The position numbers and the translations under genes were made by a program. A stretch of 39,296 nt of DNA, taken from a virus (taxonomy: Duplodnaviria > Heunggongvirae > Uroviricota > Caudoviricetes). Every line of letters begins with the position of its first letter. The stretch's first letter is position 1. The notes below the pieces were generated by a model. The model saw nothing but the letters and a program-made list of their open reading frames with translations, was not told where the DNA came from and did not search any database. Where the stretch lies: IMG/VR virus record IMGVR_UViG_2541047784_000014. One strand, given 5' to 3'. Of the stretch, positions 6,073 to 30,971 are shown in pieces.

Positions 6073-6175
6073 GTTAAATCTCCAGATAGTCGCAGCACCC
6101 GTTGCGCCGCATATCTGGTTATTCTATTACCTGAAAAACCACATATGGATAGATAATCCATAAATACGAAAAGAT

Positions 6176-6192
6176 ATTACCTTTCAGGTAAT
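6176..6192. promoter_or_regulatory. Dyad operator-like site ATTACCTTTCAGGTAAT
   Basis: Perfect 6-bp inverted arms around a 5-bp spacer; member of a motif family found at about twelve intergenic sites; sits between the tailspike start and the LexA-box promoter. Confidence 0.5.
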
Positions 6193-6230
6193 TTGCAAAA
6201 CGTGCTGGATAGCAAACAAATTATTTGCTA

Positions 6231-6246
6231 CTGTATAAATATACAG
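6231..6246. promoter_or_regulatory. LexA (SOS) box CTGTATAAATATACAG
   Basis: CTGT-N8-ACAG with an AT-rich centre, near-identical to the E. coli consensus TACTGTATATATATACAGTA; 22 nt upstream of the ATG at 6268; an internal TATAAAT could be the -10 element. Confidence 0.7.
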
Positions 6247-6267
6247 TTATTGCATGGAGAAGATAAG

Positions 6268-6525
6268 ATGCAGCAGTATCACTATCCACTGGAAGACGGA
6301 TTTACCGAAAGGATTCACACGCCGGGAGGCGTCAGGTCACTGGTGGAGGGATCGCACTTGATGAAATTACTCCGGGATCTCGATAAGGATGGATTTAATG
6401 TCGATGGCCCACTTGCCGAACTGACTGCACTGATTAACTACGTCACCAGCTCACAGATGTCTATGCAGGATCTGCAAACACATCTCGACTATTGTGCCGA
6501 ACAATTACGAAAGCAAACCAGATAA
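6268..6525 (+). CDS. Small antirepressor-like protein, paralog of the C-terminal domain of the adjacent Bro-N antirepressor
   Basis: ATG with GGAG 10 nt upstream; residues TPGGVRSLVEGSHLMKLLRDL...DLQTHLDYCAEQ parallel SPSGVLGLTENSLLMNLLNQL...DIQTHAEYINDK at the end of the 6839-7531 product; directly downstream of the LexA box. Confidence 0.6.
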   Translation: MQQYHYPLEDGFTERIHTPGGVRSLVEGSHLMKLLRDLDKDGFNVDGPLAELTALINYVTSSQMSMQDLQTHLDYCAEQLRKQTR

Positions 6526-6555
6526 GGTTTGCAATTACCAAGTGGAGTGCTTATA

Positions 6556-6572
6556 TTTACCTTTGCGGTAAA
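6556..6572. promoter_or_regulatory. Dyad operator-like site TTTACCTTTGCGGTAAA
   Basis: Same motif family; nested in a longer inverted repeat GGAGTGC...GCACTCC (6544-6587). Confidence 0.45.
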
Positions 6573-6664
6573 TTTACATCGCACTCCTCTTGTGCCATAG
6601 TAATCGGGCACTGGCAAAATCCAGTGCCGGGATTGGTCTCCCGGATTACTACAGAGGCACATAT

Positions 6665-6684
6665 GCCGCATAAGCGGTTTTTTT
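6665..6684 (+). terminator. Putative Rho-independent terminator
   Basis: Short hairpin CCGC-ataa-GCGG followed by seven T; preceded by a stable hairpin GGCACTGG-caaaat-CCAGTGCC (6607-6628). Confidence 0.45.
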
Positions 6685-6838
6685 ATGTGTAAAGCGCACC
6701 TATTCTATGGTGGGCTGTGTGGGGGCACCGAAAGGTGCGCCGGGTTCCTTTGTAGCCGGTAAGACCAACTCTGCACAGTTCACCACCATCTGATTGGTCT
6801 CAGCGGTGGTGATTAACCTAACTACAAAGGTGATCGCC

Positions 6839-7531
6839 ATGAATACCAAACCTTCCATCTTTTCCTTTGAGTCATCCTGCCAGATCCGTATGTTCATGAT
6901 TGACGGAGAACCTTGGTTTGTCACCAAAGATGTGTGCAATGCTTTGAATATTGATGTTACACAAGCGAGAAAACTTGATAAAAAAGGCTGGAACAAAAAG
7001 GGGCTGTATTCAATACAGACCCCTGGTGGAATACAAGAACTATCCATCGTTTCAGAATCAGGTCTCTACATCCTTATTCTGCGTTGCAAAGAGGCTATGA
7101 CAGAGGGAACGAGAGCATTCAGATTTCTTGAATGGGTTACAGGTGAGGTTCTTCCTCAGATCCGCCGCACCGGAAGTTACATTAAAAACTCGCTCCCGCA
7201 GGAAGAACGCATAAAGATGGTTGCCGACCAGGTAGCCAACGCCACGGCGTCAGCAGTAATGCAGGCGATGAAGATAGAGAACAAAACCTACAGTGCCCCG
7301 CTGAAGCCCGGCTACCGCAGCCTGATTCACTCGCCGTCTGGTGTTCTCGGCCTGACGGAGAACTCACTGCTGATGAATCTGCTGAACCAGTTACAGGAAG
7401 ACGGGCACGACGTATCGGGCGCGGCGGCGGAGCTGACCACCATGTTCTGCTACATCGTCGGTGTGAGTAAATGCCTGCGTGATATCCAGACGCACGCGGA
7501 GTACATCAACGACAAGGCTGGGTTCTTCTGA
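6839..7531 (+). CDS. Antirepressor with Bro-N domain
   Basis: Start set at the ATG (MNTKPSIFSF...) with AAGGTG 8 nt upstream; N-terminus has the Bro-N pattern (F.F......R....DGEPWF.A.DV...L); C-terminal domain is paralogous to the 6268-6525 product. Confidence 0.8.
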   Translation: MNTKPSIFSFESSCQIRMFMIDGEPWFVTKDVCNALNIDVTQARKLDKKGWNKKGLYSIQTPGGIQELSIVSESGLYILILRCKEAMTEGTRAFRFLEWVTGEVLPQIRRTGSYIKNSLPQEERIKMVADQVANATASAVMQAMKIENKTYSAPLKPGYRSLIHSPSGVLGLTENSLLMNLLNQLQEDGHDVSGAAAELTTMFCYIVGVSKCLRDIQTHAEYINDKAGFF

Positions 7532-7596
7532 CGGGCGGCGGCACATGGATGTGCCTTTAAAATAATCATTGGCGATGTGATGTAGATTCGCGTAAT

Positions 7597-7613
7597 ATTA
7601 CCTTAAAGGTAAA
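7597..7613. promoter_or_regulatory. Dyad operator-like site ATTACCTTAAAGGTAAA
   Basis: Same motif family; 26 nt upstream of the ATG at 7639, close to its strong ribosome-binding site. Confidence 0.45.
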
Positions 7614-7638
7614 CCATGTGTTTACATGAGGAGGAGAT

Positions 7639-7848
7639 ATGGGATTTTGGTTCGCTCGTACAAAAACGAGGGATAATGCACCCAGCCCTCAGGCAAAAAA
7701 TGCAGAAGTTCCGGCGTCAGCGCAGGTTAACAAGCGTGGTGGAGTATATATCTCATCACAGCAAATTTCTGAGCTTCCTGAGGTTAAGGAGATGCGTCGT
7801 CTCGCTGCTGCAATTGTTAAACAGGATCTTGCCACTGTAAGGAAGTAG
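7639..7848 (+). CDS. Hypothetical small protein (69 aa), first gene of an accessory two-gene operon
   Basis: ATG preceded by GAGGAGGAG; stop TAG overlaps the GTG of the next gene (TAGTG). Confidence 0.6.
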   Translation: MGFWFARTKTRDNAPSPQAKNAEVPASAQVNKRGGVYISSQQISELPEVKEMRRLAAAIVKQDLATVRK

Positions 7849-8714
7849 TGTTGCTAGCTCTTCTAATTATCCCAATCCTGGTTAGCGGTTATATTATGAT
7901 AACCGCTAACCAGTATCATTATTTCCGTTTATACCGACACGAAGGCCAGCTTCTTTATATGAAAGTAGCGGCACTAGGTACATATTGCCTTGTTGCATCA
8001 GTAATAATTGCAGCCGCTATAAAATATAAATGGCCTGATTTTCACCTAGTTCACGATATGGTGGAAACTTTTAATGTAACATCAAAACCAGAAACAGATA
8101 GAATTTACATGTGGCTGCTTCTTCTCTCAGCCACATCCATTTGCTTCTCTTTGTGTTATGTGTCTGTTGTGTGGGTGAAAGATTTTCTTCTTGGTTGTTT
8201 TTATAAACGTGATATTTACGAGCAAAAAACAGAGGCAATGAAGGCCAGAGTACTGCGAAAAACTTACTCGCAAGGTTCTTTAGACTTACTATTGCTTGAT
8301 GCTATTGAATCGGATCCTAAACGACCAATGCTGATTACTTTATCATCAAACAAAGTGTATGTTGGAATAATAAATGGTTCTGGTGAACCAACGGAAAATC
8401 AGGGTCCGCATCAGCACATATCTTTTGTTCCTTTAATGTCAGGATACAGGAACAAAGAAAACTTATCTGTCACATTCACTAATGCTTATCCAGGAGAAAT
8501 ACAGGTCAAGCGGACTGCAGCAATAAGAGGAATTAGCAGAAAGAAAGTGCCAGGACTTGAGATCATGGTGTCTATTGACGAAATAAGTTATATATCATGG
8601 TTTGATTTTGAAGTATATAAAGCAACAAATAACAAAGTAGAATCCAGGGGGCACGTTATTCGTGTTACCAAAAATGGAAGAAATATATATCAAAGAAATA
8701 GCAAAAAAGAATAG
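7848..8714 (+). CDS. Hypothetical inner-membrane protein (about 3 N-terminal TM segments plus a roughly 170-aa soluble domain); candidate superinfection-exclusion or abortive-infection factor
   Basis: Long AT-rich ORF with hydrophobic N-terminus, translationally coupled to the 69-aa gene and followed by a strong terminator. Start uncertain (GTG 7848, TTG 7851 or ATG 7896). Function is inference only. Confidence 0.65.
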   Translation: MLLALLIIPILVSGYIMITANQYHYFRLYRHEGQLLYMKVAALGTYCLVASVIIAAAIKYKWPDFHLVHDMVETFNVTSKPETDRIYMWLLLLSATSICFSLCYVSVVWVKDFLLGCFYKRDIYEQKTEAMKARVLRKTYSQGSLDLLLLDAIESDPKRPMLITLSSNKVYVGIINGSGEPTENQGPHQHISFVPLMSGYRNKENLSVTFTNAYPGEIQVKRTAAIRGISRKKVPGLEIMVSIDEISYISWFDFEVYKATNNKVESRGHVIRVTKNGRNIYQRNSKKE

Positions 8715-8735
8715 CCCGCGCTGCGGGCTTTTTTG
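8713..8735 (+). terminator. Rho-independent terminator
   Basis: Hairpin AGCCCGC-gct-GCGGGCT followed by a T-run, immediately after the stop at 8712-8714. Confidence 0.8.
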
Positions 8736-8772
8736 TGTCTGCGGATTCCCGCCCGGGCGGCGGTGGCATTCG

Positions 8773-8798
8773 TTAAAAACAAGGCCGCGAAAGCGGCC
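8773..8798 (-). terminator. Rho-independent terminator for the minus-strand gene 8813-9262
   Basis: Hairpin GGCCGC-gaaa-GCGGCC (8783-8798) followed on the minus strand by UUGUUUUU. Confidence 0.7.
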
Positions 8799-8799
8799 T

Positions 8800-8811
8800 G
8801 TGACATGTCAC
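8800..8811. repeat. 12-bp perfect palindrome GTGACATGTCAC (copy 1 of 3)
   Basis: Identical 12-mer also at 25802-25813 and 28066-28077, each next to a terminator-type hairpin; here it lies between the stop codon (8813-8815) and the terminator hairpin. Confidence 0.6.
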
Positions 8812-8812
8812 G

Positions 8813-9262
8813 CTACTTGCGAAATCTTTCTTTACCCTTCCAGCCAGTAGATGTTAGTTCAGGATGAATGGTTCCCAATATAAAGCCAACCATAGCGGAG
8901 CGAGGATCTTCTATTTTATCCGTTAATTCTTCGGCATAACTCACAGGCAACCAAGCAACAAGATCACCAATCCTCAGCTTTGGTCCTTTGCTGTAAGATG
9001 AATCGGCAATAACAAAAAATCCACCATCAGCTGAGCACACCTTCAGCATTGCCCTTTGTCTTCCAGAATCTAGCAAAACTGGCTGTTCCCCACTTGGACC
9101 AGGTATGATGATGGCTGGCATTGGTTTATTGGCTGAAAGGCTTGTGTCAAGATACTTACACGCATACTCAAAAGCTGAAAAGTTATCCTTAAAGATAAGA
9201 GGTTGAATTTTATTGCTAACCTCCTTACCACCGATTAATCTGTTGATCATCTTCTTGAACAT
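8813..9262 (-). CDS. Hypothetical protein (about 149 aa)
   Basis: ORF with in-frame ATG codons at 9262 and 9250 (the track start is a GTG at 9271); moderately AT-rich; followed by palindrome and terminator. Confidence 0.55.
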   Translation of the reverse strand: MFKKMINRLIGGKEVSNKIQPLIFKDNFSAFEYACKYLDTSLSANKPMPAIIIPGPSGEQPVLLDSGRQRAMLKVCSADGGFFVIADSSYSKGPKLRIGDLVAWLPVSYAEELTDKIEDPRSAMVGFILGTIHPELTSTGWKGKERFRK

Positions 9263-9274
9263 AAAGGTCACCTA

Positions 9275-9715
9275 ATGATTAAGCCGATGCACGCTATTAC
9301 AGCTACCGTTTTGTTTATCCTACCAATTTTTTCGTTTGCAAACGACATATGTTTTAAGAATTTAATAAATGAGGATATGTGTGCACATGCAAACAAAATT
9401 GCATCAGAAGCAGGAAAGTCACTTCCCATAAAATTGAATGATAATATGTCTATTGTTTCAATAAATGCAATACTAAACAAACTTTTAGTTGTAGCGCATC
9501 TTAATTACAACAACAGCTATTTATCAAAAGTTTATAACGGTGATGTAACCTTAGAAAATAAATTAAAGAGTGTAATGCGAAATTATTCAAAATCGAGCAT
9601 TTGCTCCAACAGGCAAATGAAAGCATTTATTCACCTTGGCGGAGAGATTGAATATAGGTATGTATTTAGTGATGGCAATATATTTGATACATACGCCATC
9701 ACTAATTGTGAATAG
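9275..9715 (+). CDS. Secreted (signal-peptide) Cys-containing protein, AT-rich accessory gene
   Basis: Predicted signal peptide (probable cleavage after FSFA); 4 Cys in the mature part; very AT-rich; on the strand opposite to the flanking late genes, its stop codon abutting the convergent stop of the 1129-aa gene (TAG/CTA at 9713-9718). Confidence 0.6.
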   Translation: MIKPMHAITATVLFILPIFSFANDICFKNLINEDMCAHANKIASEAGKSLPIKLNDNMSIVSINAILNKLLVVAHLNYNNSYLSKVYNGDVTLENKLKSVMRNYSKSSICSNRQMKAFIHLGGEIEYRYVFSDGNIFDTYAITNCE

Positions 9716-12700
9716 CTATTTCATCTGCTCTTCAACTTTATTTAGTAACGGTGATATCGCCCACAGGTTCTGAAAAGGTAGCATTTTACGGACCGCGTGG
9801 GTTTGCTGGCTGTCAAATTCTCCGTTAAGTACACCATTCGCAACCGTCGCGGCATCACCGCCAAGATCAAAGGTAGGACCAAGTAAAGCACCAATAGCAT
9901 TACGACTCTGAAACCTTGATACCGGAGGCGCACCAAACATCGCGCCAAGACCAAACCTACCGCCGCTTATGTTCTCAACGGTATTCAGCGGCTCAGAGAG
10001 CCAGCCAAGCATTCCGCCCCGGTCGATCCCCTCTTTCACAAGGTTATTCCAGCTGTAGTCGATATCGCGACCGCTTAACTTCTGTTTCATCATATAGACC
10101 ATTGAGCCAAGCGCAATCGTGCCAAGCGCACCAAGATAGAATGCAGCATCGCCCTGCTGGATACCAGATACTAGCACCCTGTTATGCTGTGCGAAGATAA
10201 ACGTTTTGAACTGCGTGATCATCTTCCAGCCTTCTTTACTAAAAAACAGCGGTGTATCACCTACGCCAGGCGTTACAATCACTGAGTCTACATCTTTCAG
10301 CACTGCAGACTGGAAAATCTCTCTAGCGAAACGGTCATCCCACAGATGACTATGCCCGGTTAACAGCCCGTCCATATCCTCTCCGTGCTTCCCGAATTGC
10401 TCCCCGATTCGGCGCAGAACATCTTCATTGATGCCGACCTGTGCCATCTTCCGCATTTCACTTTTGGAGAGCGTGCCACCAGCAGAAACTTGGCGAGCCG
10501 CGTCAAGTATCCTCGACTGCACTATCATCCCGGACCATGATTTAAGTGCGCTGTTCCACTGATTCATCAGCGTCCAGTTACCGAATTTCTGCGTCATCCA
10601 GTTCAGACCTCGCTCAGCGGCGCTTCTCCGGCTATAGGGGTCAGTAAGATCCGCTATAGCCTTTGTACGCGTAGACAGGACATAATCAAGCCCAACGGCC
10701 ATTTCTCGCAAATCCCTGGTTGCAATTTTCACTGAGTCCATATTTTTAAGCATGCTTACCATTGGTCCGAGAGATTTTCTCAGGCCATGCTGCATCATCG
10801 GTCGCATCAGATCAGTTGCAGCGGAGACAGTCATTCCACCAAGCAAACGGAGGAAGTTAATATTCCTAGCAACTCGCCCGGCACGAACAAAGAAACTGCG
10901 TGGATCTTGAGGTGCACCGTAAGTACCAAGCAGTCGATCACGCATAGCCGTAATATCCCTAATATCAGCCTCCCGTTGCTTCTCAAGAACTGCACGTCGT
11001 TTAGGTGTTTTAGCCTCTTTTATTAGCCGGGTATATTCCTCACTAACCTGACGGATTTGCTCCCCCATATCTTTACGGCCAAACTGCGCAGTCAGCTCAA
11101 TTTCTGGTGCCACCTGCCGGAGATAACTTTCCATGATGTAGTTAACATCTGATTCAAGAAAATCTTCTATACGCTCATCAGGAATAAGCAGCGTTCTGCT
11201 TTTAGTGAAACCAGCCCGACCAACGAGTCTCTCTGGGATAATATCGGCTGGTACAAGCCCGGAAGGTGCGCCTATTATTTTATTCACGATCTCGTCAGCA
11301 GCGTCCTCTGCTTCCTCTCGGGATAGAGGCTCCATCTGCTTCAGTGCTCGTTCGCGGCTTGCATTCAGCCTTGTGGTTGAATTTGCCCGTTTTTGCAGTC
11401 GGCGAAGCTCAGAACGATATTTCCGTGGATTATCCAGCAACTCCATATGGCGCTGATAGACAGGAAGCTCACTCTTTGCCTGCGCTATATCATCAAGGCG
11501 TGTTTTAAGGTCAGAGCTTTCTTTCATCATTCTTGCCTGAAGTTTTTCTGATGAAGTCTCGGCCAACTCTTTTTCTATTCTTGTAAGACGCGCCTGTGTG
11601 TCAGTCTCCTGAGATATAAGCTTATTTCGTTTATCCAGTTCTTCCATGAGTAGAATTTTTTTACCAGACCATTTCTCCGCTTCAGCGATTTCACTAGCGA
11701 GAGCATCAGCGCGCGGTGCCGATTCCTCTGCAGTTTTTAGCAATGAATTTATCCTTTCAATTCGCTGACCTGCTTTGTCAGCACCTTTGGCACTAATCCC
11801 TTGTATCCAGTTGGCAATTCGCCCTCTGAATTCAGTGCGGTCGGAAAGTATCTTATCGAACTTATAAATGCGGGGAAGATAACTTTTCGCCGTCACGACA
11901 TCGATATCCTCAGGAAGGATCCCCAGTTCCTGCATACGGGCTTTTGTGGTCTCGAAAATGGGGCGGATTCTGGCGGCTGCTTGTGAAACCTCAGGAATAT
12001 CACTCTGATCACCACGGCGCATAGCCATGCCAACAGCTTCATTGAACTCAATAAAGTTCATCCTCTTCACGCCGCGGGCGCTAACAGATTTGCTGTACTG
12101 CTGGTAAGCATCACGAGTGGCTTCCATCTGCTTATAAAGCATGGCGTCGTATTGCTTAATCTTAGTCTCGACTGCCGTAAACGTAGCCAACCCCTCATCA
12201 TTTTTGGCGAAGAAATAGTTATTTTCGGCAAGCTGCTGGTTAATCTGACGGGAGACAAGAGATGGTGATTGAGCCAAGCGGCCAGCAGGAGTGACACTCA
12301 ACGTTTTGTTAGCAAGTCCAAGTCCAGCGAGCTGTTCCTGATCGAGTGTGGTATTGAAAACCTGAGCTGCACCAATGCTTTGAGGAGAATCCATACCTCG
12401 CAAATGATTACCTACTGAGTTAACCACTGCCTCGCGCGCGCTAGGTCCAGCAAGTAGCTGTGCACCAGCACCAAGGATCCCACCAACGAGAGCATCAACA
12501 ACAACGTTCGATACGCTCTCCATCGGTGAGCGAGCTTCCTGAGTGGCCTGTAATGCGGCTTCTGATACTCCCCCACCAGCAGCATTCGCCAGGGCAAAAC
12601 GCCCTGCCGTCTCAGCAATACTTCCTCCACGCGCTACCGCCCCTACAGGGATAAACATTGCAGCCACATTAACCGGGTCTATCATTCCCATTGCTAAGCT

Positions 12701-19362: not shown

Positions 19363-19967
19363 CAGGACAACCTCGCAATGGTAAACTCGTCAACCGGTGG
19401 CTGTGGTTCCTGTGATTCATTCTGGCTATGCGAACCAGCACTAAGAATCACGCGATTGTACATATTGAGGGAAAACGTACCGAGGTCTGCATTCCCAGTC
19501 AGCGCCATGTTAATAGCTGCCGCAAGACGCCAGGCCAGCGCCTCCATAAAAATGGCATCAAACATGTTCACATCTGTAACACGAGAGACATACTTGAGCC
19601 ATGCCTGCGGCTGGTCTGTGTAGATCAACTTTCCTGTTCCGTTGGCGTCTGCACCAACTTCGTACTGAACACGCATTGCTGCTGTTGGATTGCGTACACC
19701 AGGAAGCATAATTTCAGTAATGCGCAGACAATCGGACGGGTACTGGTATGCGTATTCCCAGTCTGGCGGCGGATTGTTCGTATCTGCAAGCGCCACGCGT
19801 TTGGTAGCAAAGTTCCAGTCAAAATCAGAAAGCACAGCATCACGGCAGGCCTCAAAGTGCAGCGAACATTCCCCCGCTTCCTTACTGGCTTCCGTCAGGC
19901 TGTTAATGCTGCGGCTGTTGCCAATATTGGACAGCGCACGATTACAGATCTCTACTACAGAGGCCAT
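19362..19967 (-). CDS. Tail tubular protein A-like (T7 gp11-like)
   Basis: 201 aa (T7 gp11 is about 196 aa); N-terminal ALSNIGNSRSINSL resembles the gp11 N-terminus. Confidence 0.7.
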   Translation of the reverse strand: MASVVEICNRALSNIGNSRSINSLTEASKEAGECSLHFEACRDAVLSDFDWNFATKRVALADTNNPPPDWEYAYQYPSDCLRITEIMLPGVRNPTAAMRVQYEVGADANGTGKLIYTDQPQAWLKYVSRVTDVNMFDAIFMEALAWRLAAAINMALTGNADLGTFSLNMYNRVILSAGSHSQNESQEPQPPVDEFTIARLS

Positions 19968-23171: not shown

Positions 23172-24847
23172 TGTGATTGCCCACCCTGACCACTAACTGC
23201 ATTCGCCATAGCTGACAAAACACTCGGATCCGAAGTTTTAGCTTCGCTTAGCGTCTTGGCACCCTGTGCCGCCGCCATCCCCATCGCCATCATTTGTTGC
23301 TGCTGTTGTTGCTGTGCCCGTTGCTGGCGAGCCTGCTCAACCTGTTCCTGCGGAACAATGACGGTTGGAGACACTCCGGACATATCAGCGAATGCATCGA
23401 TCGCCTGATCAACGTTGAGTTTGTCGAGAGCTTCTGGTTTCGCTTGCGCAAGTTGACCAATGAAGTTGACCGTAGACGCCAGACTGGACAGGCCGATAGA
23501 CTTCTGCGCCTGAGCCATGACGGAAATGTATTCGACCTTCAGGGGCATACCTTCCATCGCGTCAGGCGGTGGCGGCAGCATGTTTTTACGCACCATCATC
23601 GAGAAAGCGCGGTCAATGAGAGGATTAAGACATTCGTCGTTCAGACGCTCCAGAACCGGCCCCAACATCAGAAGTTTTTCTTCTTTCATTTCGATCACCG
23701 CTTCAACAGGCATCGAGCGGGTATTGATGTTCTGCAACATCATGAACAGATCGACAAAGTAGGCGCTGTTAATGATTTGACGAGTGTCCTGAATGTCTGC
23801 CACCAAATCTGCTGTACTGGGGTTAACCAGATAAGCAGGTCTGAAACCATCCTGACCAGTAATCTGATCGATATACGTGATGTCGCCAGGAAGAAGGGAG
23901 GCACGCTGATTCTTGAGGGAAGTCGGAGCAACCATCGGCGGATTGGTGGCTTTATCAATCAACTGCGACTTGCGCTTCTGGAGAAGCTGCAATGCCTTAA
24001 CAGGTCCAAGCGCCAGCATACCCGGGCATGATGATCCATAAACATCTTCGCCGTTAACTTCCCAGCGCGGAGCCATAATTGGAAACTCATCGAATCCGGA
24101 CTCACGCAACAACTTGTCGTTATCGCCACCAACCTCGTAATAAACCGATTTGAATGGCTTGTTCTTGCTATCCAGCTTCGATGTATCGCGGTCAATGTTC
24201 GGGTAAACCGAATGCATCACTTCGATCCACTTCTCGTAGGTGCCGCTTTCCCACATGCTTTTTACGGATTCGCTGACGTTATTTAGCCCGAACTCCTGAA
24301 CAAGCTGACGAACAGTCATAGAGAACTTGCGAAAACAGGTGTCAACACTGCCACGAGGTGAGTTAGCCAGGTAGTAACTGCCTATCGGGAATGGCATTGT
24401 GCGAATGATGTCCTCGTCATCCTCCAGCACTGCCATTGCACCAGTGCTGTATGTGCCGAGGCTTCCGTATAACTGCGGCAGCGACTGATAGAGATTCGAC
24501 TTATTGAACATATCGTTCATGCGGTTCTGCACCGCCTCAAGCCACAACTTAACAGGGCCATAATCCATCATTTCAGGATCTGGCGTAGCCAGGCGAAACC
24601 ACGGACGCGCGGGGCTTGTGATGCCTGACATCATGCCGCTGGCGAGAGTGCGCGCCGCCATAGTCCCGGTCGAATCAATAATGCGTGTATTGCGTCGATC
24701 GTTACGGTTGACCTCAGAAGTCAGAAAGCGGGAACCACGCGGGTTGATGTAATCACTCAACTCGCGCCAGTGCGGCTCGAACGACTGACGCTCGCTTTCA
24801 AGTTGTGCGAACTGTTTGTTCAATCGCTCTTTAGTTGTTTCCGCCAT
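23168..24847 (-). CDS. Portal (head-to-tail connector) protein, T7 gp8-like
   Basis: 559 aa; Gln/Ala/Met-rich C-terminal tail (QQQQQQQMMAMGMAAAQG) resembles the T7 gp8 C-terminus; RBS GGAGTCATTGAA. Confidence 0.85.
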   Translation of the reverse strand: MAETTKERLNKQFAQLESERQSFEPHWRELSDYINPRGSRFLTSEVNRNDRRNTRIIDSTGTMAARTLASGMMSGITSPARPWFRLATPDPEMMDYGPVKLWLEAVQNRMNDMFNKSNLYQSLPQLYGSLGTYSTGAMAVLEDDEDIIRTMPFPIGSYYLANSPRGSVDTCFRKFSMTVRQLVQEFGLNNVSESVKSMWESGTYEKWIEVMHSVYPNIDRDTSKLDSKNKPFKSVYYEVGGDNDKLLRESGFDEFPIMAPRWEVNGEDVYGSSCPGMLALGPVKALQLLQKRKSQLIDKATNPPMVAPTSLKNQRASLLPGDITYIDQITGQDGFRPAYLVNPSTADLVADIQDTRQIINSAYFVDLFMMLQNINTRSMPVEAVIEMKEEKLLMLGPVLERLNDECLNPLIDRAFSMMVRKNMLPPPPDAMEGMPLKVEYISVMAQAQKSIGLSSLASTVNFIGQLAQAKPEALDKLNVDQAIDAFADMSGVSPTVIVPQEQVEQARQQRAQQQQQQQMMAMGMAAAQGAKTLSEAKTSDPSVLSAMANAVSGQGGQSQ

Positions 24848-24861: not shown

Positions 24862-25068
24862 TTACTGACCAAGTAGCGTTTTACCGCTGGTATTAGCGGT
24901 TGATGTGTCGCCCTGAGAACCGGTAAGCAGCGTAGAACTACGACCAGCAGCAGCGCGACGGCGACGAGTTTCTTCGTCGCGGGCATCAACAACGGCGGCA
25001 TCCTGCTCCTGTGGTGCTGCCTGAACTTCTGGTGTTGCAGGCACTGATGGTGAGCTACCCATGCACAT
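24862..25068 (-). CDS. Hypothetical small protein (68 aa) upstream of portal
   Basis: ATG preceded by GGAGTCATTGAT, nearly identical to the portal initiation region; an overlapping alternative frame (24849-25088) is less likely. Confidence 0.4.
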   Translation of the reverse strand: MCMGSSPSVPATPEVQAAPQEQDAAVVDARDEETRRRRAAAGRSSTLLTGSQGDTSTANTSGKTLLGQ

Positions 25069-25157
25069 ATCAATGACTCCGTACGCAATTAAATTATTAC
25101 CAATTTAACCACATATGATTTATTTATCGTAGGTAGTTGACATTTAACGCACAAATT

Positions 25158-25174
25158 ATTACCTTTCAGGTAAC
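25158..25174. promoter_or_regulatory. Dyad operator-like site ATTACCTTTCAGGTAAC
   Basis: Near-identical to the 6176-6192 site; preceded by a TTGACA hexamer (25137-25142) and a shared AACCACATA element (25107-25115). Confidence 0.45.
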
Positions 25175-25494: not shown

Positions 25495-25571
25495 GTGGCA
25501 TTAGCTCAGTTGGACAGAGCAACCGCCTTCTAAGCGGTTGGTCGCAGGTTCGAATCCTGCATGCCACGCCA
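25495..25571 (+). tRNA. tRNA-Arg, anticodon UCU
   Basis: Full cloverleaf: acceptor GTGGCAT/ATGCCAC, D-arm GCTC-AGTTGGACA-GAGC, anticodon stem ACCGC/GCGGT with loop CTTCTAA, T-arm GCAGG-TTCGAAT-CCTGC, discriminator G and encoded CCA; close to E. coli argU. Confidence 0.9.
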
Positions 25572-25657: not shown

Positions 25658-25734
25658 CAGCAGGACGCCATTGCGATGACTTCATGCTGTAAACCCGTAC
25701 AGCCACGGAAGGCAAAACTCATTGCTTCCAGTTC

Positions 25735-25758: not shown

Positions 25759-25801
25759 AAGGTGTGAATCATGAAATACGAATTCGATGGATTTTGATGT
25801 C

Positions 25802-25813
25802 GTGACATGTCAC
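25802..25813. repeat. 12-bp perfect palindrome GTGACATGTCAC (copy 2 of 3)
   Basis: Identical to copies at 8800-8811 and 28066-28077; followed 4 bp later by a terminator hairpin. Confidence 0.6.
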
Positions 25814-25817
25814 AAAC

Positions 25818-25844
25818 AGCCAGCCGATGAGCTGGCTTTGTTTT
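25818..25844 (+). terminator. Rho-independent terminator
   Basis: Hairpin AGCCAGC-cgatga-GCTGGCT followed by TTTGTTTT. Confidence 0.7.
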
Positions 25845-25887
25845 ATCCTCATCAGAGGATATCAACGATATTATCCCCTCAAGCGGA

Positions 25888-27363
25888 TTAAGCATAGGGA
25901 TCGTAATCTGTGATGGCCTTGCCTTGCTGGTTCTGCTGCCCGGGAATTCGCAGACGCTTCGACACAGGGAACGCAAACGTCAGCAGTAGCGCATCGCCTT
26001 TACCAGGCGAACGCCCAAGCCGCTCCTTGATATCTTCCTTCGGTTCGATAACGATTTTACCGTCCACTCGAACTTTGTACTCTGCCGCCGACAGATCGTC
26101 CGCTGTTTCCTGGTCATCCAGCATCCCGCCCAGCCTCAGCCATGTCTTGCATGAGTTGAACATCTCCCCACGCTTGTTGAGCATCTGCTGGTCAGTAGAC
26201 GCGCCACCGAACGGAACAAGTTGCCATGTGCGCCCCCAACCGTCACCGATTGACTTCAGACCGGTACCGTAACCAAAGTCGATGAACACTGCGTCAGCCT
26301 GATACAGGTCTTCAAAGTCAGCAATACGCTTCGCCATAATCAGATCGTCGGTAGTCTTGTTGCCAGTCCACAGCACCTTACTGTGTAGCCCCTGCCGCAG
26401 GTATATCACCGCGTCATCAACGCCTGAATATGCCGGGTCAACACCGATTATCACCGGAGCATGCGCCACCTGCGCAGCGGTTACCACCCGTTTCATTGCC
26501 TCATCAGTAAGACCGGTAGGGATAAACTGCAATTCAGATGCATCAGGGAATATGCCGCGCACACGGATTTTAACGAAGTCGCTGTCTTCCCCGTAGTCAT
26601 CAACCCATTTCTGCAACTGCTGTTTGTTAGTGCCTTCCACCGTCCGGCTGTCAATCTGCGCAGTTTTCCAGCGGTGTTTATATTTGCGGAAACATTCACG
26701 GAATCGCCCGGTATTACGCGTCGGGTTTCCGAACGCCACCCAGATAATCTCAGTGTCTTCGTCCGTTAGCGCACCTTCGGCAACTTCCCACACCAGATCC
26801 GCAATGTTCGACGCTTCATCGAATACCACGATGATGCGTTTGCGCTCGTTGTGTAGTCCGGCGAATGCCTCAGTGTTGTGCTCAGACCAGGGGATTGCGT
26901 CAGCTCGCCACCGCTTGTCGTGCCCAGGATCATTGCTGTACATCGCGGTAGCGGTACAGGTAAACCAGTCTTTCGTGATAGCAAGGTTCGACCACTTGAT
27001 AATTTCCGGCCAGGTCTTCGTTCGTAGCTGGTTGTCGGTGTTGGCGGTCACCACGACCTTACAATCCTCGCAAGTGGACATGCCCCAGTTGATCAGCATT
27101 GAGATGAATGCGGATTTACCAATACCGTGACCAGAAGCGCGTGCCAGCATAAGCGGCTGATAGCGCGTCTCTGGATTCTGCAGGTGATCACGTATCTCTC
27201 GGAACGCATCAGCCTGCCACTGACGTGGGCCGGTGGCATGTGCCAGTTCAGTCCCCTCTTCCCCCCACGGGAACGCATAGAGGGCATAGCCAAGCGGATC
27301 GTGAGTGAACCCTGCAATATCCTCGATCAACTGCTCTTCAGGAGATAACGCTGTATCTGTCAC
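25888..27363 (-). CDS. Terminase large subunit
   Basis: 491 aa; Walker A-like ARASGHGIGKS in the N-terminal ATPase region; overlaps the small-subunit gene end. Confidence 0.85.
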   Translation of the reverse strand: MTDTALSPEEQLIEDIAGFTHDPLGYALYAFPWGEEGTELAHATGPRQWQADAFREIRDHLQNPETRYQPLMLARASGHGIGKSAFISMLINWGMSTCEDCKVVVTANTDNQLRTKTWPEIIKWSNLAITKDWFTCTATAMYSNDPGHDKRWRADAIPWSEHNTEAFAGLHNERKRIIVVFDEASNIADLVWEVAEGALTDEDTEIIWVAFGNPTRNTGRFRECFRKYKHRWKTAQIDSRTVEGTNKQQLQKWVDDYGEDSDFVKIRVRGIFPDASELQFIPTGLTDEAMKRVVTAAQVAHAPVIIGVDPAYSGVDDAVIYLRQGLHSKVLWTGNKTTDDLIMAKRIADFEDLYQADAVFIDFGYGTGLKSIGDGWGRTWQLVPFGGASTDQQMLNKRGEMFNSCKTWLRLGGMLDDQETADDLSAAEYKVRVDGKIVIEPKEDIKERLGRSPGKGDALLLTFAFPVSKRLRIPGQQNQQGKAITDYDPYA

Positions 27364-27956
27364 TGATTACCATCCTGACGTTCTTTGAGTCGCTTCCTGG
27401 CTGCCGCTATGCGATCAGCAATTGTCACATTCACATTAACATCCAGGCGTTCTTTGAACGCGTTGACGTCGACGTGCTTACCAATCAGTTCGAGGTTCTT
27501 CACCTTGTCAGGCCATTTAATTTTTTTGAGGATTGTCTCTATCGAATCCTCGTTCATGTTCATGATGGTCGATGACAGATCAAAGCCACTAAGCGTAGTG
27601 CGCCAGATTTTCGGCCACTCGCGGATTGGCTTAAGGCTCCCATCGTCGTTGAGGATGTCGATCACGTCCATCTGGTCGATCTCCACTAGGCGCATGAGAA
27701 CGTAATCAGCACTGACGCGCATTCGTTTGTTGCGCTCCTCCATCAACTCGGCAATCCGTTTTTGAATGCGTTCATCGCGCATCATGACACTGGCTTTAAC
27801 TGCCGCTGTATTTGGGGAGAATCCTGCGTTAATCGCTGCCTGAGTCTGGTTTTCAGGCGTTTTGATGTATGACTGGCAATAAGCCTCCTGCATTGCTGTT
27901 AGTGGCTTAAATTGCGTTGATTTGCGTTTATAGGTTTTAGGTTCAGCAGGCATCAT
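27360..27956 (-). CDS. Terminase small subunit
   Basis: Start set at the ATG pair (MMPAEPK...); helix-turn-helix-like N-terminus; the longer track ORF (to 28052) would run through a terminator hairpin and operator motifs and is rejected. Confidence 0.75.
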   Translation of the reverse strand: MMPAEPKTYKRKSTQFKPLTAMQEAYCQSYIKTPENQTQAAINAGFSPNTAAVKASVMMRDERIQKRIAELMEERNKRMRVSADYVLMRLVEIDQMDVIDILNDDGSLKPIREWPKIWRTTLSGFDLSSTIMNMNEDSIETILKKIKWPDKVKNLELIGKHVDVNAFKERLDVNVNVTIADRIAAARKRLKERQDGNQ

Positions 27957-27972
27957 AACCACCGTGGTAATA

Positions 27973-27989
27973 GTTACCGTTGTGGTAAT
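27973..27989. promoter_or_regulatory. Dyad operator-like site GTTACCGTTGTGGTAAT upstream of the terminase genes
   Basis: Same TTACC-N5-GGTAA family; 17 bp upstream of the terminase small-subunit start; flanked by GGTAATAGTTACC-type repeats (27966-27995). Confidence 0.45.
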
Positions 27990-27997
27990 AGTACCAT

Positions 27998-28025
27998 GCA
28001 AAATAAAGCCGCCATAGTTGGCGGC
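27998..28025 (-). terminator. Rho-independent terminator between the early (Nin-like) genes and the terminase genes
   Basis: Hairpin GCCGCCA-tagt-TGGCGGC (28008-28025) followed on the minus strand by UUUAUUUUG. Confidence 0.65.
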
Positions 28026-28065
28026 AGTATTCAAAACCATCAAATTCATCATGCATAATCTACTC

Positions 28066-28077
28066 GTGACATGTCAC
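28066..28077. repeat. 12-bp perfect palindrome GTGACATGTCAC (copy 3 of 3)
   Basis: Overlaps the stop codon of the 28074-28415 gene; a terminator hairpin lies about 40 bp downstream on the minus strand. Confidence 0.6.
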
Positions 28078-28415
28078 ACTATTAATTTCGTTTCATGCCA
28101 GCCTTTAGTCACCCAGCATTGTGAGTCACCATTACACGGACATGAATTAACTGGAACTCTCTCGCCGCACTTACCGCAACGTTTTCTAATGATCGATTTT
28201 ATACGCCCGCGCACGCGTGCATCATCCTGGCGGATCAGTAACGCTATATACTCACAAAATTCGTAAGGCGCACGCCCGGGGCGACGCGCAGCACAGTTAC
28301 GCTCAAGCATTTCAATTTCCTGAGCATCAAGCACAATTTCCAGCTTACGCACACCAGATGCAGCTTGTCTGGCTCTCTGAGCGGCTTTGCGCTCTGCTGC
28401 TGATTTAGCCATCAA
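28074..28415 (-). CDS. Hypothetical basic zinc-ribbon protein (Cys cluster CGKCGERVPVNSCPC); candidate late-gene regulator by position
   Basis: 113 aa, Arg/Lys-rich N-terminus and C-terminal Cys cluster; last gene before the terminator and terminase genes, i.e. the position Q occupies in lambda. Regulatory role is inference only. Confidence 0.55.
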   Translation of the reverse strand: MMAKSAAERKAAQRARQAASGVRKLEIVLDAQEIEMLERNCAARRPGRAPYEFCEYIALLIRQDDARVRGRIKSIIRKRCGKCGERVPVNSCPCNGDSQCWVTKGWHETKLIV

Positions 28416-28686
28416 TATTTACCTTTATCGCGAACACCTTTACCGGTTTATCACCGAAGTGGGGATGTGTGATTGTCTTGATTTCATATCCGTCATACTG
28501 GACGTTAATTCTGCGGCTGGAGTCGTCGCGCTTCGGATATCCCTTTGTGATAATCAGGCGGTCATACTCCCGGAACATAATTCGCTTATTCCAGTAGTCA
28601 TTACACAGGCGATACTCTTCCGTTTTCTCTCCGCGAATCATGGCATCGAAGTATTCACCTTTAACGGCAAGTTGCAGGTTAGCCAC
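28405..28686 (-). CDS. Hypothetical protein, possibly ASCH/PUA-like
   Basis: Start set at the GTG preceded by AAGGAG just after the upstream stop; motif GEKTEEYR resembles the ASCH-domain G.KT.E.R pattern (weak). Confidence 0.5.
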   Translation of the reverse strand: MANLQLAVKGEYFDAMIRGEKTEEYRLCNDYWNKRIMFREYDRLIITKGYPKRDDSSRRINVQYDGYEIKTITHPHFGDKPVKVFAIKVNIDG

Positions 28687-29038
28687 GGTTAACTCCTTGC
28701 TGTGTGGCGTCGAGTAATAAATCCCACAACCGCTGAGAGCAATTTCCGCATGTACAGCGTTGACCCACAACGTTTATCGCGTTGCTGATTTCCGGCGTTA
28801 CCTGTTTAGGAACCATAACCCAACCATCCGGAGTTACCGGAGAGTTGCCATCCAGCGCGTTCAACTTGTAAGCCTGGCTTACAGGTTCTGCACTATCAGC
28901 TTCGCGCCGCTTCTGTAGCTCTGCTGCCATCGCTCTCACGACTTCAACTGGTGCCCTTGCAGCAAACTCTATGTTGGTGATCAGCTCATTAAGATATTGC
29001 TCGCTGGGATACTGTTTCTTATTGGTAATAGTGGTCAT
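28679..29038 (-). CDS. Hypothetical early protein
   Basis: 119-aa ORF in an operon-like array with tight junctions; no family recognised. Confidence 0.55.
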   Translation of the reverse strand: MTTITNKKQYPSEQYLNELITNIEFAARAPVEVVRAMAAELQKRREADSAEPVSQAYKLNALDGNSPVTPDGWVMVPKQVTPEISNAINVVGQRCTCGNCSQRLWDLLLDATQQGVNRG

Positions 29039-29041
29039 GTG

Positions 29042-29329
29042 TTAGTCCTCATCCACTTCAACGCCATCTTTCAGCGTGATGCCGTGCCAATCATCAGCCC
29101 AACTGGTTAGCCCTGGCGCATCAATGCTAGGCATATAGACGCTTGCAGTGTGGTAGCCCTTATCGTTATCAATGCTGGCAACGTGCTCGCCGTTGTATGC
29201 GCTCAGCGTGTCCAGGACGCTATAAAACTTTCCTCCGGCTGCCCTGAAATCCTTTACAGCCTTCACAAGGCGATTCCACGCTTTTTCCTGTTCTGGCGTC
29301 AGGTCGATTAATTCCTGCAAAGTTGCCAT
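29042..29329 (-). CDS. Hypothetical early protein
   Basis: Start set at the ATG (MATLQELIDL...) with AGGAGAG upstream, immediately after the upstream stop; the longer track ORF overlaps the upstream gene. Confidence 0.5.
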   Translation of the reverse strand: MATLQELIDLTPEQEKAWNRLVKAVKDFRAAGGKFYSVLDTLSAYNGEHVASIDNDKGYHTASVYMPSIDAPGLTSWADDWHGITLKDGVEVDED

Positions 29330-29330
29330 A

Positions 29331-29954
29331 TCACTCTCCTTTGATGCGAATGCCAGCGGCGCGCTCGGATTCACTTTGTTCCCAAAACCACTTGTGAAGC
29401 TCCATAAGCTTTTCGTCAATCGGTGCATATTTGCGATTAAAGTAGGCCTGAGCATCTTTCTCAGATTCGTCCGGCAATTCGCCAGGGCCAAACAGTGTGT
29501 TATAAATCCATGCCAGTCCGCTCTTAGCGTCGCCAGTTGCCTGCCATTCGATAATCGCAGCCTGCATGACCAGAATGTTTTTCCCGATTAACAGGTCCAG
29601 TTCTTTGAACCGGTTGCGGATGTATGCATTCTCGCTTTGTAATTCAGCGTTGCGCTTCTCTGCGGCTTCCAGCTCAACTCGCAGCTTCCCAACCGTAAGC
29701 GCAATATCCTCGTTCTCCTGGTCACGGCGTTTTATGTATTGCTGGTTTCTTTCCCGTTCATCCAGCAGTGCCAGCACCGTTTCCGGGCCGGTCAGCAGTT
29801 TGAAGTTGTTAATCGCATCAATATCAACATCGCTATCTTTAAGCTCCTTTTCGCTTAACAAGTCATCATCGGCTGGCAACGTTAACAGGCGTTCCATTGC
29901 CGGAATTGCGCGTTCTGCCGCTTCACGCAGTGCCTGATAGTCAATCTTGCTCAC
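29331..29954 (-). CDS. Hypothetical coiled-coil early protein
   Basis: 207 aa with a central coiled-coil segment; start overlaps the upstream stop. Confidence 0.6.
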   Translation of the reverse strand: MSKIDYQALREAAERAIPAMERLLTLPADDDLLSEKELKDSDVDIDAINNFKLLTGPETVLALLDERERNQQYIKRRDQENEDIALTVGKLRVELEAAEKRNAELQSENAYIRNRFKELDLLIGKNILVMQAAIIEWQATGDAKSGLAWIYNTLFGPGELPDESEKDAQAYFNRKYAPIDEKLMELHKWFWEQSESERAAGIRIKGE

Positions 29955-30484
29955 TGGTTGCCTCCTTTGCGAAGCTTCGCCGCAAAATCAGCCGCAACCT
30001 CTTTGACCATATTGGATAGCGGAGTGCCACCTCCGAATTTTTCTGAGAACATCTCTACCCCCTGCGCCCGTACTTCAGCCAGGAAAGCATCGGTGGCTGG
30101 GGTTTCGATATCGTTAATTTCAGGAAGAATCTCTTCCCATGTAGCGATATCGCCATTCAAATGCCATCCGGCAATTCCACTGGAGTTATCCGCAACACTC
30201 CGAACGGCTTCAATAGCTTCATGCATTGCCGCATTCTCCGCCGCCAGCGCCGAAAACTTCTCGTGTGCCAACTTAACAGCCGAATCAGCCTGCTTAATTG
30301 ACTCAATCGCTTTCTGCTGGTCTTCGGCCATCGCATTAGCACGCACCAGTTGCACTTCCAGTTGCGTTGCCAAATCGCTGATCAGCTTTGCCACACTGCG
30401 CATATCAACGGCACCACATTCTGCTTTCAGTTCCGAAGCCATCTCATGCCCGGCGGCAACTAACCCTTTGATATTACTTTCCAT
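29951..30484 (-). CDS. Hypothetical helical early protein
   Basis: 177-aa Ala/Glu-rich ORF. Confidence 0.6.
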   Translation of the reverse strand: MESNIKGLVAAGHEMASELKAECGAVDMRSVAKLISDLATQLEVQLVRANAMAEDQQKAIESIKQADSAVKLAHEKFSALAAENAAMHEAIEAVRSVADNSSGIAGWHLNGDIATWEEILPEINDIETPATDAFLAEVRAQGVEMFSEKFGGGTPLSNMVKEVAADFAAKLRKGGNQ

Positions 30485-30545
30485 CTTTACCCTCGCTTAT
30501 CCACATAACTTATTGATTACATTGATAACTAAAAAGATCGTCGAT

Positions 30546-30890
30546 TCAGAACTCTTCGATGTTCCAGCCACCACCTGCTTTCTTTGGTTTAACCGTTACC
30601 CCGATGATTCGGAACGGATACTGATCTGCGGCGACTTTGGTTTTCACCCTGGCGTCGTCGGTCCAGAAACCTTTCACTTCGTGCAGTTCCATCTCGCCGG
30701 TGGCGAGCATCACAGCAAAATCTGGCGTATAGAACGTGTTGTCAGCTAACCGCAGCTTGATACCCTCAAATCGATACCAGACGATTTCTCCTGCACGTTT
30801 ACGCAACTCAAGGTGCTGGCAATACGCAGATTCTGTTTTGTTCATCTGGCCTGTTTTGAGTCGACCAAGAGCCTGTATCTGTTTTCTCAT
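30546..30890 (-). CDS. DUF1064-like phage protein (putative nuclease/resolvase fold)
   Basis: 114 aa; family assignment from remembered sequence pattern; the start codon abuts an operator-like site (30893-30909). Confidence 0.6.
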   Translation of the reverse strand: MRKQIQALGRLKTGQMNKTESAYCQHLELRKRAGEIVWYRFEGIKLRLADNTFYTPDFAVMLATGEMELHEVKGFWTDDARVKTKVAADQYPFRIIGVTVKPKKAGGGWNIEEF

Positions 30891-30892
30891 AA

Positions 30893-30909
30893 TTTACCCC
30901 TGAGGTAAT
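30893..30909. promoter_or_regulatory. Dyad operator-like site TTTACCCCTGAGGTAAT
   Basis: Same motif family; immediately upstream of the DUF1064 start codon; followed by AACCACATA (30914-30922). Confidence 0.45.
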
Positions 30910-30954
30910 TAAAAACCACATAAGACACGAAATCAATAGAGTTTAGAATACTTT

Positions 30955-30971
30955 GTTACCCAGAAGGTAAC
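30955..30971. promoter_or_regulatory. Dyad operator-like site GTTACCCAGAAGGTAAC
   Basis: Perfect 6-bp arms; second site of the module between the P-like gene and the DUF1064 gene. Confidence 0.45.

Follow-up and report, generated by a model that had tools for sequence, protein, structure and literature searches.

The DNA analyzed here, a 39,296-nt stretch from the IMG/VR record IMGVR_UViG_2541047784_000014 (hereafter, the window), belongs to a tailed virus of the class Caudoviricetes and contains three modules, R1 (6126-6192), R2 (25096-25174) and R3 (30893-30971), in which sites for the phage repressor Rep are combined with a second short motif, AACCACATA. We put at about even the chance that R1-R3 are sigma-70 promoters clamped by Rep and equipped with an additional, dyad operator for a separate factor, a reading in which we infer the transcription starts, the binder of the dyad and the direction of regulation from the sequence. 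Each module would be the control region of a minus-strand promoter that is kept off in the lysogen by Rep, and the three promoters would serve the tailspike gene (R1), the gp3/portal/head operon (R2) and a middle operon led by a DUF1064 gene (R3). Each would combine a strong distal 17-bp operator with a proximal Rep site that overlaps the -10/+1 region at a distance of 50 bp (R1) or 62 bp (R2 and R3), with R3 having a complete operator as its proximal site and R1 and R2 just one half-site each; tetrameric Rep, with its two pairs of DNA-binding domains, would hold both sites and enclose the promoter. The dyad, located inside the promoter core, would be the operator of a second, dimeric factor that acts on the lytic promoters, PR excepted; this factor would probably occlude RNA polymerase and might also touch Rep.

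The three-region architecture had been proposed in an initial annotation of the window, and every coordinate given there for R1, R2 and R3 proved exact. In R1, the proximal Rep half-site ATTACC (minus strand GGTAAT; 6126-6131) is separated by 5 bp from the minus-strand dyad AACCACATATGGAT (6137-6150), a perfect match to AWCCA-N4-TGGWT that contains AACCACATA at 6137-6145, and the distal full operator ATTACCTTTCAGGTAAT (6176-6192) also abuts the plus-strand ant promoter region; positions 6126-6136 form a perfect 11-nt inverted copy of 6182-6192. R2 consists of a minus-strand half-site ATTACC (25096-25101) that is part of a pseudo-operator, a minus-strand dyad with one mismatch, AACCACATATGATT (25107-25120, with AACCACATA at 25107-25115), and the distal full operator ATTACCTTTCAGGTAAC (25158-25174). 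R3 has full operators on both sides: the proximal one (30893-30909) covers the edge of the predicted -10, +1 and the Shine-Dalgarno sequence, and the distal one occupies 30955-30971; here AACCACATA (30914-30922, minus strand) supplies only the TGGTT half of the dyad and forms the final 9 nt of the predicted spacer. All three modules have 5 bp between AACCA and the 5-nt core of the half-site; AACCACATA is at a variable distance from the full operator, namely, 30 nt in R1, 42 nt in R2 and 32 nt in R3.

Judged by its sequence, the window is an epsilon15-like temperate podophage of the genus Uetakevirus (the epsilon15/phiV10/SPC32H type), with 96-98% identity over aligned segments to phiv142-3, PAS61, phiV10, ZX5 and TL-2011b. 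Its orientation is opposite to that of the epsilon15 record, so that the structural genes lie on the minus strand of the window. For comparison, we assembled a set of seven genomes from four host genera, namely, the window, epsilon15, SPC32H, phiV10, Tyrion, BUCT554 and BUCT711; the relatives found in IMG/VR with a TerL query, all 98-100% identical and with no heteroimmune relatives among the matches, were used for population-level footprints (~80 loci). Rep (33381-33965, plus strand) is a homolog of SPC32H Rep (PDB 5D50_A, E = 3.5e-42) and is 99.5% identical to the repressors of phiV10, ZX5 and phiv142-3; Ant (6268-6525, plus strand) is a homolog of the SPC32H antirepressor (PDB 5D50_E, E = 4e-47). 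The Rep of the Salmonella phages is only ~43% identical to that of the window, yet the operator is the same.

Within the window, TTACC-N5-GGTAA occurs at 10 exact and four one-mismatch sites, compared to 0.65 expected. The operator consensus was reportedly given by Kropinski et al. in 2007 as ATTACCWDWWNGGTAAT. The epsilon15 GenBank record (AY150271.2) annotates 'repressor' protein_bind sites homologous to R1 (19895-19911), R2 (2931-2947) and R3 (35906-35922), as well as repressor sites homologous to the window PL (32479-32632) and terS (12) sites; for the operators, therefore, the finding is not new. As in epsilon15 and SPC32H, the window carries a 17-bp operator, ATTACC-N5-GGTAAT, repeated and dispersed genome-wide at homologous positions, cognate Rep and Ant homologs, and, upstream of ant, a consensus LexA box, CTGTATAAATATACAG (6231-6246); on these sequence features, it is a member of the epsilon15/SPC32H Rep-Ant regulon, with binding of Rep predicted. 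A 10-nt inverted repeat, TAGCAAACAA/TTATTTGCTA (6210-6230), adjoins the LexA box of ant. The rep-cro (PR/PRM) region contains three operators, and the tandem operators at PR and terS are 17-20 bp apart; those at terS, 18 bp apart (27956-27988), overlap the start of the gene, and in the second of them GGTTA replaces GGTAA in the E. coli phages and Tyrion, with GGTAA present in epsilon15.

The second motif is a different matter. The binding-site annotation of AY150271.2 comprises repressor, IHF, RNase III and integrase sites only, none of them at an AWCCA-N4-TGGWT dyad; the dyad is likewise not annotated in the phiV10 record, and a full-text search of the literature accessible to us returned nothing relevant for the motif strings. 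Thus, the operator system is known and the dyad is apparently undescribed. On the transcribed strand, AACCACATA reads TATGTGGTT, the pattern conserved across genomes is TAT-N-TGGWT, and this element is the stronger, better-conserved half of the imperfect 14-bp dyad AWCCA-N4-TGGWT. There are related copies beyond the three originally noted: one in the spacer of PL, one downstream of cro and a degenerate one at the lysis promoter. PL (34057-34099, plus strand) consists of a -35 TTGACA (34057-34062), a 17-nt spacer that includes AACCAAATA (34066-34074) and a -10 AATTAT (34080-34085), and scores 10/12 in the promoter scan; the 14-bp dyad takes up the final 14 nt of the spacer and is followed by the -10-like hexamer and then by TACC of the Rep operator. 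The two Rep operators of PL, proximal (34085-34099) and distal (34023-34037), are 62 bp apart. The site downstream of cro (32907-32940, plus strand) consists of a perfect dyad, AACCAGATTTGGTT (32907-32920), 5 bp and a one-mismatch operator (32926-32940). The degenerate copy at the lysis promoter (3146-3169, minus strand) has a half-site GGTAAC (3169-3164) and a one-mismatch dyad, TAAATGGTT (3159-3146), followed by TATTAT. The rep-cro (PR/PRM) intergenic region contains no dyad in any of the seven genomes.

TAT-N-TGGTT occurs nine times in the window (1.1 expected; maximum of 5 in 200 simulations), and some of the intragenic copies may be fortuitous. Which modules bear a perfect 14-bp dyad depends on the genome: in the window, these are R1 and the cro-downstream site; in phiV10, R1, the lysis promoter and the cro-downstream site; in Tyrion, the lysis promoter, PL and the cro-downstream site; and in SPC32H and BUCT554, the lysis promoter. 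The composite TGGWT-N5-(TTACC/GGTAA) is found five times in the window, with 0.27 expected. Because the seven genomes together contain 11 perfect dyads against 1.2 expected and 27 composites against 1.8 expected, and because, among the natural E. coli variants, TAT-N-TGGTT is free to vary at N only, we conclude that the dyad is under selection. The distance from TGGWT to the neighboring Rep half-site is exactly 10 bp, start to start, in R1, R2, R3 and the cro-downstream site, and the 5-bp gap between the dyad and the Rep site in these four modules is conserved among the homologous phages. A scan of a 596-Gb collection of genome contigs with the short pattern TGGTT-N5-TTACC-N5-GGTAA yielded almost only chance matches and one true match, in a Citrobacter prophage.

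Several observations around these additional copies are worth recording on their own. At the cro-downstream site, the dyad, the hexamer (TTTTAT, or AATAAT/AATTAT in Tyrion and BUCT711) and the operator (32907-32945, plus strand) point towards cro and rep, a position that recalls lambda PRE or an anti-cro antisense promoter; no -35 is evident at this site, and a 17-codon open reading frame (ORF) follows. Near the lysis promoter, a strong Shine-Dalgarno sequence, AAGGAG, with an ATG at 3109 (3107-3120, minus strand), begins a short ORF that lies immediately before the gp23-like gene of the lysis cassette (ATG at 3086) and is in another frame. A variant of the 9-mer, TATCTGGTT/AACCAGATA, occurs five times (6112-6120, 6516-6524, 23825-23833, 37475-37483 and 38409-38417), with four of the five copies inside or at the ends of coding regions (the 3' end of ant, portal, int and others); the copy at 6112-6120 and AACCACATA of R1 match at 8 of 9 positions as an inverted repeat around the predicted -10.

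All three modules occupy homologous positions in epsilon15, SPC32H, phiV10, Tyrion, BUCT554 and BUCT711, with divergent sequence between the motifs, and this cross-genome conservation is the strongest evidence that the likeness of the modules is not due to chance. In R1, CATAT-NN-GGTT is invariant in all seven genomes and GGTAATAGAAT in six of the seven. In R2, the block TAT(G/A)TGGTTAAATTGGTAATAATTTAA is invariant in the seven genomes and nearly so in the ~80 IMG/VR loci. The pattern of R3 across genomes is T-W-W-T-R-TGG-W-T, and, over ~40 natural variants, AACCACATA of R3 is less variable than the neighboring bases of the spacer. These patterns leave little of the earlier suggestion that the modules are duplicated promoter cassettes: apart from TATGTGGTT and the operator halves, a three-way alignment recovers just a few A/T columns, and R2 has a 12-nt insertion; given that only functional motifs align, the modules are not recent duplicates. 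Since they are separate already in Salmonella, Klebsiella and Enterobacter phages, they are old, independently maintained sites, and the conservation of each locus in the face of diverging intervening sequence implies that their likeness reflects shared function rather than recent copying. The opposite concern raised in the initial annotation, that short motifs might be all that the modules share and that they do so by chance, is answered by the conservation: only the motifs align, but every one of the modules has been kept at its locus in phages of four host genera.

It thus seems very improbable that the modules resemble each other through descent from a single promoter cassette or through chance recurrence of a 9-mer in A/T-rich intergenic DNA. 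The case for this explanation comes from the window alone, where AACCACATA is present in three copies, all on the plus strand, against 0.32 expected, a weakly significant count given that three copies were reached in 2 of 100 shuffles, and where k-mers near operators are only modestly enriched, TATGTGG being fourth in rank. It is contradicted by the lack of alignment outside the motifs and the insertion in R2, by the persistence of each module at one and the same locus in four host genera despite diverging flanks, and by the counts of composites and dyads, which are about tenfold or more above expectation; we regard it as already largely refuted.

As the initial annotation had surmised, the modules are regulatory and lie in promoter regions, all promoter assignments here being predictions. 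At R1 and R3, these were obtained with a position-weight scan, of six genomes in the case of R1. The predicted tailspike promoter of R1 (6121-6149, minus strand) consists of a -35 TCCATA (6149-6144), a 17-nt spacer and a -10 TAGAAT (6126-6121); the pair T(T/C/A)CATA-17-TAGAAT is the top or tied top hit in epsilon15, SPC32H, BUCT711, BUCT554 (with TAAACT as the -10) and Tyrion, and ranks third in the window. The predicted middle promoter of R3 (30908-30936, minus strand) has a -35 TTGATT (30936-30931), a 17-nt spacer and a -10 TTTAAT (30913-30908); the corresponding pair, TTGAWW and TTTAAT/TAAATT with a 17-18 nt spacer, is top-scoring at the same position in the six genomes in which it was recovered, and in BUCT711, where the scan missed it, TTGATA stands at the same alignment position. 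A conserved terminator lies just upstream of the R3 promoter. The genes that follow on the minus strand are the tailspike/tail-fiber gene (3316-6072; annotation in relatives) at R1, a gp3-like gene of phrog_831 (24862-25068), the first of the portal/head operon and followed by portal, at R2, and a DUF1064 gene (PF06356; 30546-30890), the first of the middle unit, at R3.

The claim that each module sits at the start of an accessory or early unit therefore needs to be split: the side with the half-site and the 9-mer faces minus-strand late or middle lytic genes, and only the full operators of R1 and R2 adjoin plus-strand accessory units. R3 has no plus-strand gene, and the next gene (31008-31808) converges on it. 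At R2, a perfect TTGACA (25137-25142, plus strand), a candidate -35 of a divergent promoter, lies 15 nt before the operator; it is kept in six of the seven genomes (TTGACC in BUCT711) with the same spacing in all seven. Downstream of it is a tRNA-Arg(TCT) gene (25495-25571, plus strand), on the strand opposite to the flanking late genes, and, as the R2 operator covers the predicted -10/+1 of this promoter, the tRNA-Arg/moron unit is probably controlled by Rep. In the phiv142-3 record, the tRNA is annotated on the other strand.

The placement of the dyad within these promoters bears on the question, raised in the initial annotation, of whether AACCACATA forms part of a -35/-10 pair: it is itself neither a -35 nor a -10 hexamer and lies mostly within the predicted spacer. 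A -10-like hexamer and then TACC come immediately after the dyad position in R3, where this position is in the spacer, and at the cro-downstream site. In R1, as in one reading of R2, it is the -35 and the first part of the spacer that the dyad overlaps, with the GGTAA half-site between the dyad and the -10. The broader possibility that RNA polymerase reads the motif as a core-promoter feature, be it part of a -35, an extended -10-like element or a spacer element, strikes us as improbable. To its credit, CATA of CATATGTGGTT provides the 3' part of the predicted R1 -35 (TTCATA/TCCATA), a -10-like hexamer comes directly after TGGTT in R3, at the lysis promoter and in one reading of R2, and TGTGgTTAAAT in R2 resembles an extended -10. 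Yet the distance to the -10 differs among the promoters, the motif is inverted within the PL spacer, the best-supported R3 assignment is devoid of TG at -15/-14, and the repeated perfecting of the dyad at different sites in different genomes would not be expected of a polymerase element.

An action of the motif at the RNA level, as a hairpin arm or as the target of a small RNA or a protein in a 5' leader, is very unlikely. In the E. coli phages, R1 does contain an inverted copy, AACCAGATA (on the plus strand, TATCTGGTT at 6112-6120), 16 nt away, with a possible 11-bp stem around the -10, and the motif would fall in a leader if transcription started from a possible upstream promoter, TTGCAA-16-TATCTT. 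However, conservation of the partner arm does not extend to Tyrion or BUCT711, the R3 and PL promoters would not transcribe the motif, whose place there is between the -35 and -10 hexamers, and no module matches any Rfam family.

The spacing of the Rep sites is strikingly regular. In R3 and PL, the full operators of each pair start exactly 62 bp apart in all seven genomes, and, among the operator pairs spaced 61-63 bp in the ~80 IMG/VR loci, 99 of 101 show the 62-bp spacing. The R2 pseudo-operator TGGTT-AAATT-GGTAA (25097-25111) also starts exactly 62 bp from the full operator, and the equivalent distance in R1 is 50 bp. SPC32H Rep is a tetramer on DNA, with palindromic sites bound by pairs of domains from different dimers and with four flexible DNA-binding domains (PMC9638917); it consists of an N-terminal DNA-binding domain, a middle dimerization domain and a C-terminal tetramerization domain (TetDloop, as in the looping repressor Rco), with ~100 A between its two pairs of dimerization domains, and the structural mechanism of repression by Rep on DNA was described as not well characterized (PMC9986798). 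Overexpression of the ZX5 repressor lowers the level of lysis-gene transcripts; no sites were mapped in that work (PMC9782041). The paired sites around the promoters fit a tetrameric Rep with two DNA-binding pairs that would bridge them. Paired operators at a fixed distance likewise flank the promoter in the systems of tetrameric loopers, namely, pLS20 Rco, with operators 75 bp apart, lac, gal and lambda CI (PMC9986798), compared to 62 bp here; unlike in those systems, the second site of R1 and R2 is only a half-operator, and from the spacing we infer the bridging by Rep over 50-62 bp.

Does the dyad then bind Rep or something else? It appears to be distinct from the Rep operator in sequence: it reads ACC-N6-GGT, compared to ACC-N5-GGT in the operator; at position 4 of the half-site, almost every copy of the motif has T, and operator half-sites almost always have A (GGTTA of the second terS operator being an exception); and TGGAT variants are tolerated in the dyad. 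A second binding partner, one of the two options offered in the initial annotation, is still the leading idea, as the shared element extends beyond the operator, and such a partner is plausible. The principal alternative is that the dyad, or its TGGTT half, is an auxiliary, low-affinity Rep site used by the Rep tetramer in the manner of the tandem pairs at PR and terS, either in place of the missing operator half (R1 and R2) or one helical turn upstream of the proximal operator (R3 and the cro-downstream site). We consider this unlikely, albeit not negligibly so. In the pseudo-operators of R1 and R2, TGGTT takes precisely the place of TTACC, R3 and the cro-downstream site have it 10 bp from TTACC, the centers of dyad and operator are ~19.5 bp apart, within the 17-20 bp range of the tandem operators at PR and terS, the second terS operator of the E. 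coli phages and Tyrion has GGTTA where GGTAA would be expected, and the four flexible DNA-binding domains of Rep (PMC9638917) would suit such use. Conversely, the element, when inverted, reads AACCA, unlike GGTAA; the halves of the palindrome are 1 bp wider apart than those of the operator, so that the two cannot be in register simultaneously; the invariant GGT core is disrupted in TGGAT variants; TAT before TGG is conserved, in contrast to the freely varying centers of the operators; and R3 would present five half-sites to four domains. On this sequence evidence, a distinct factor, to which we give about an even chance, appears likelier than an auxiliary Rep contact.

A further possibility, which we hold only tentatively and regard as no more probable than the auxiliary site, is that hetero-operators occur at the lytic promoters of Uetakevirus phages, in which a Rep half-site or operator is joined, at a fixed 5 bp, to a dyad read by a different DNA-binding module. 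The reader would be either a separate dimer, of phage or host origin, that contacts Rep, or a second helix-turn-helix (HTH_3) found within Rep itself (residues ~104-147), in the region described as the dimerization domain.

Several findings weigh against the reading of R1-R3 as Rep-clamped promoters with a dyad for a separate factor. The position of the dyad relative to the predicted -10 varies, with the end of TGGTT at about -13 in R3 and about -23 in R1, and, in PL, the AACCA half is inverted, at about -26 to -22. R3 retains only one half of the dyad, and the PL copy in the Salmonella group is degenerate. For the minus-strand promoter of R2, the position-weight scan gives two competing assignments, ACGATA-17-TAAATT and ATCATA-17-TAATTT, and a strict consensus scan detected no minus-strand promoter at R1, R2 or R3. 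An auxiliary Rep contact would account just as well for the rigid 10-bp phasing relative to Rep half-sites. Finally, of the Cro-like, gp49-like, AlpA-like and PerC-like proteins that we considered, the last two also being encoded in the window, none can be assigned as the binder of the dyad. The Cro-like protein (32996-33226) more probably uses the Rep operators, given that its sole distant homolog, in Psychrobacter phage pOW20-A, adjoins TACC-N5-GGTA sites; the gp49-like gene is also an accessory gene of the lambdoid phage Chlobot, which has no perfect dyads, and the AlphaFold model of its product (predicted local distance difference test score, pLDDT, of 55) is too poor to use.

These candidates deserve a closer description. 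The helix-turn-helix of the Cro-like protein is invariant in all seven genomes, and its gene always travels with rep; as a binder of the dyad, this protein is weakened by the lack of a dyad at PR/PRM and by the presence of the distant homolog beside TACC-N5-GGTA operators. In pOW20-A, an unrelated marine phage that encodes a CI-like repressor along with the Cro-like homolog (2516-2553, 3398-3460), the operators are ATACCT-N3-AGGTAT, and they share the TACC-N5-GGTA core with the Uetakevirus operator (four sites compared to 0.04 expected). The gp49-like protein, annotated as 'transcriptional regulator' (phrog_536; 28074-28412, minus strand; 112 aa), is encoded by the last gene before terS and has a basic N-terminus, a segment that resembles a ribbon-helix-helix by eye, and a Cys-rich C-terminus with conserved C79, C82, C91, C93 and C99. 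It has no match in Pfam, NCBIfam or PDB, and its homologs, in N15 (gp46), phiKO2 and phages of Yersinia, Vibrio and Aeromonas, are all annotated as 'hypothetical'. Further candidates are the AlpA-like (36551-36799), PerC-like (36909-37208) and gp40-like (32645-32908) proteins. Among general regulators, DnaA, CRP, IHF, FNR, sigma-54 and PhoP were rejected in a comparison of their consensus sequences by eye: TTAACCACA deviates from the DnaA box TTATCCACA at an invariant T, there is no TCACA partner 6 nt away as CRP would call for, no WATCAA-N4-TTR for IHF, and the halves are everted relative to the FNR consensus TTGAT-N4-ATCAA. A perfect DnaA box, TTATCCACA, is present at 30497-30505, between the DUF1064 gene and the next minus-strand gene, and is conserved in phiV10.

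Parallels exist for the individual components of the proposed arrangement. In phage P1, a single repressor, C1, acts at many dispersed operators that directly control structural and lytic operons, as here, and, in the Lpa-dependent late promoters of P1, a conserved dyad in the spacer region replaces a good -35. Neither the sequences nor the proteins of C1 and Lpa are related to those considered here, the window dyad is found also at PL and at a middle promoter, and no Lpa-like activator was recognized in the window. The closest functional analog of the composite is the CI-MOR OM-OR arrangement of TP901-1, in which a second short motif is located beside the main repressor operator in a fixed, conserved topology: short MOR sites flank the CI operator, and a repressor:partner complex has been proposed to act on the composite (PMC7250872). 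The TP901-1 composite, however, is part of a bistable switch and represses the repressor gene, whereas the window dyad is spread over lytic promoters, with none at rep-cro; the TP901-1 proteins are unrelated to those of the window, and the partner is known in that system, compared to only candidates here.

Next to the LexA-controlled ant gene, the plus strand of the window carries a second antirepressor locus. It includes Rfam hits to isrK (6608-6684; 74.7 bits) and C4 antisense RNA (6703-6790; 78.6 bits), both above the gathering score, directly upstream of a Bro-N antirepressor ORF (6794-7531), an arrangement like the antisense-controlled immI module of P1/P7; Rep operators at 6557 and 7598 flank this module. 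As the immI-like module stands next to the LexA-controlled Ant, two antirepressor systems apparently coexist in one phage.

The Rep/Ant switch of epsilon15-like phages serves as a structural model for non-canonical repression, and the Uetakevirus phages are serotype-converting prophages of E. coli O157, Salmonella and Klebsiella. To this regulon, the present analysis adds features that can be tested: the strict 62-bp pairing of operators, the half-operators at late promoters, and a dyad that recurs in the core of almost every lytic promoter and is missing from the switch. As the site of a separate factor, the dyad would add a layer of regulation, for example, temporal control or fine-tuning of the lytic genes; if it is a Rep contact, it would show how the tetramer deploys its four DNA-binding domains. 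Should the modules turn out to be hetero-operators, a single repressor complex would read two kinds of sites, and the dyad would set the strength or the timing of repression for each promoter.

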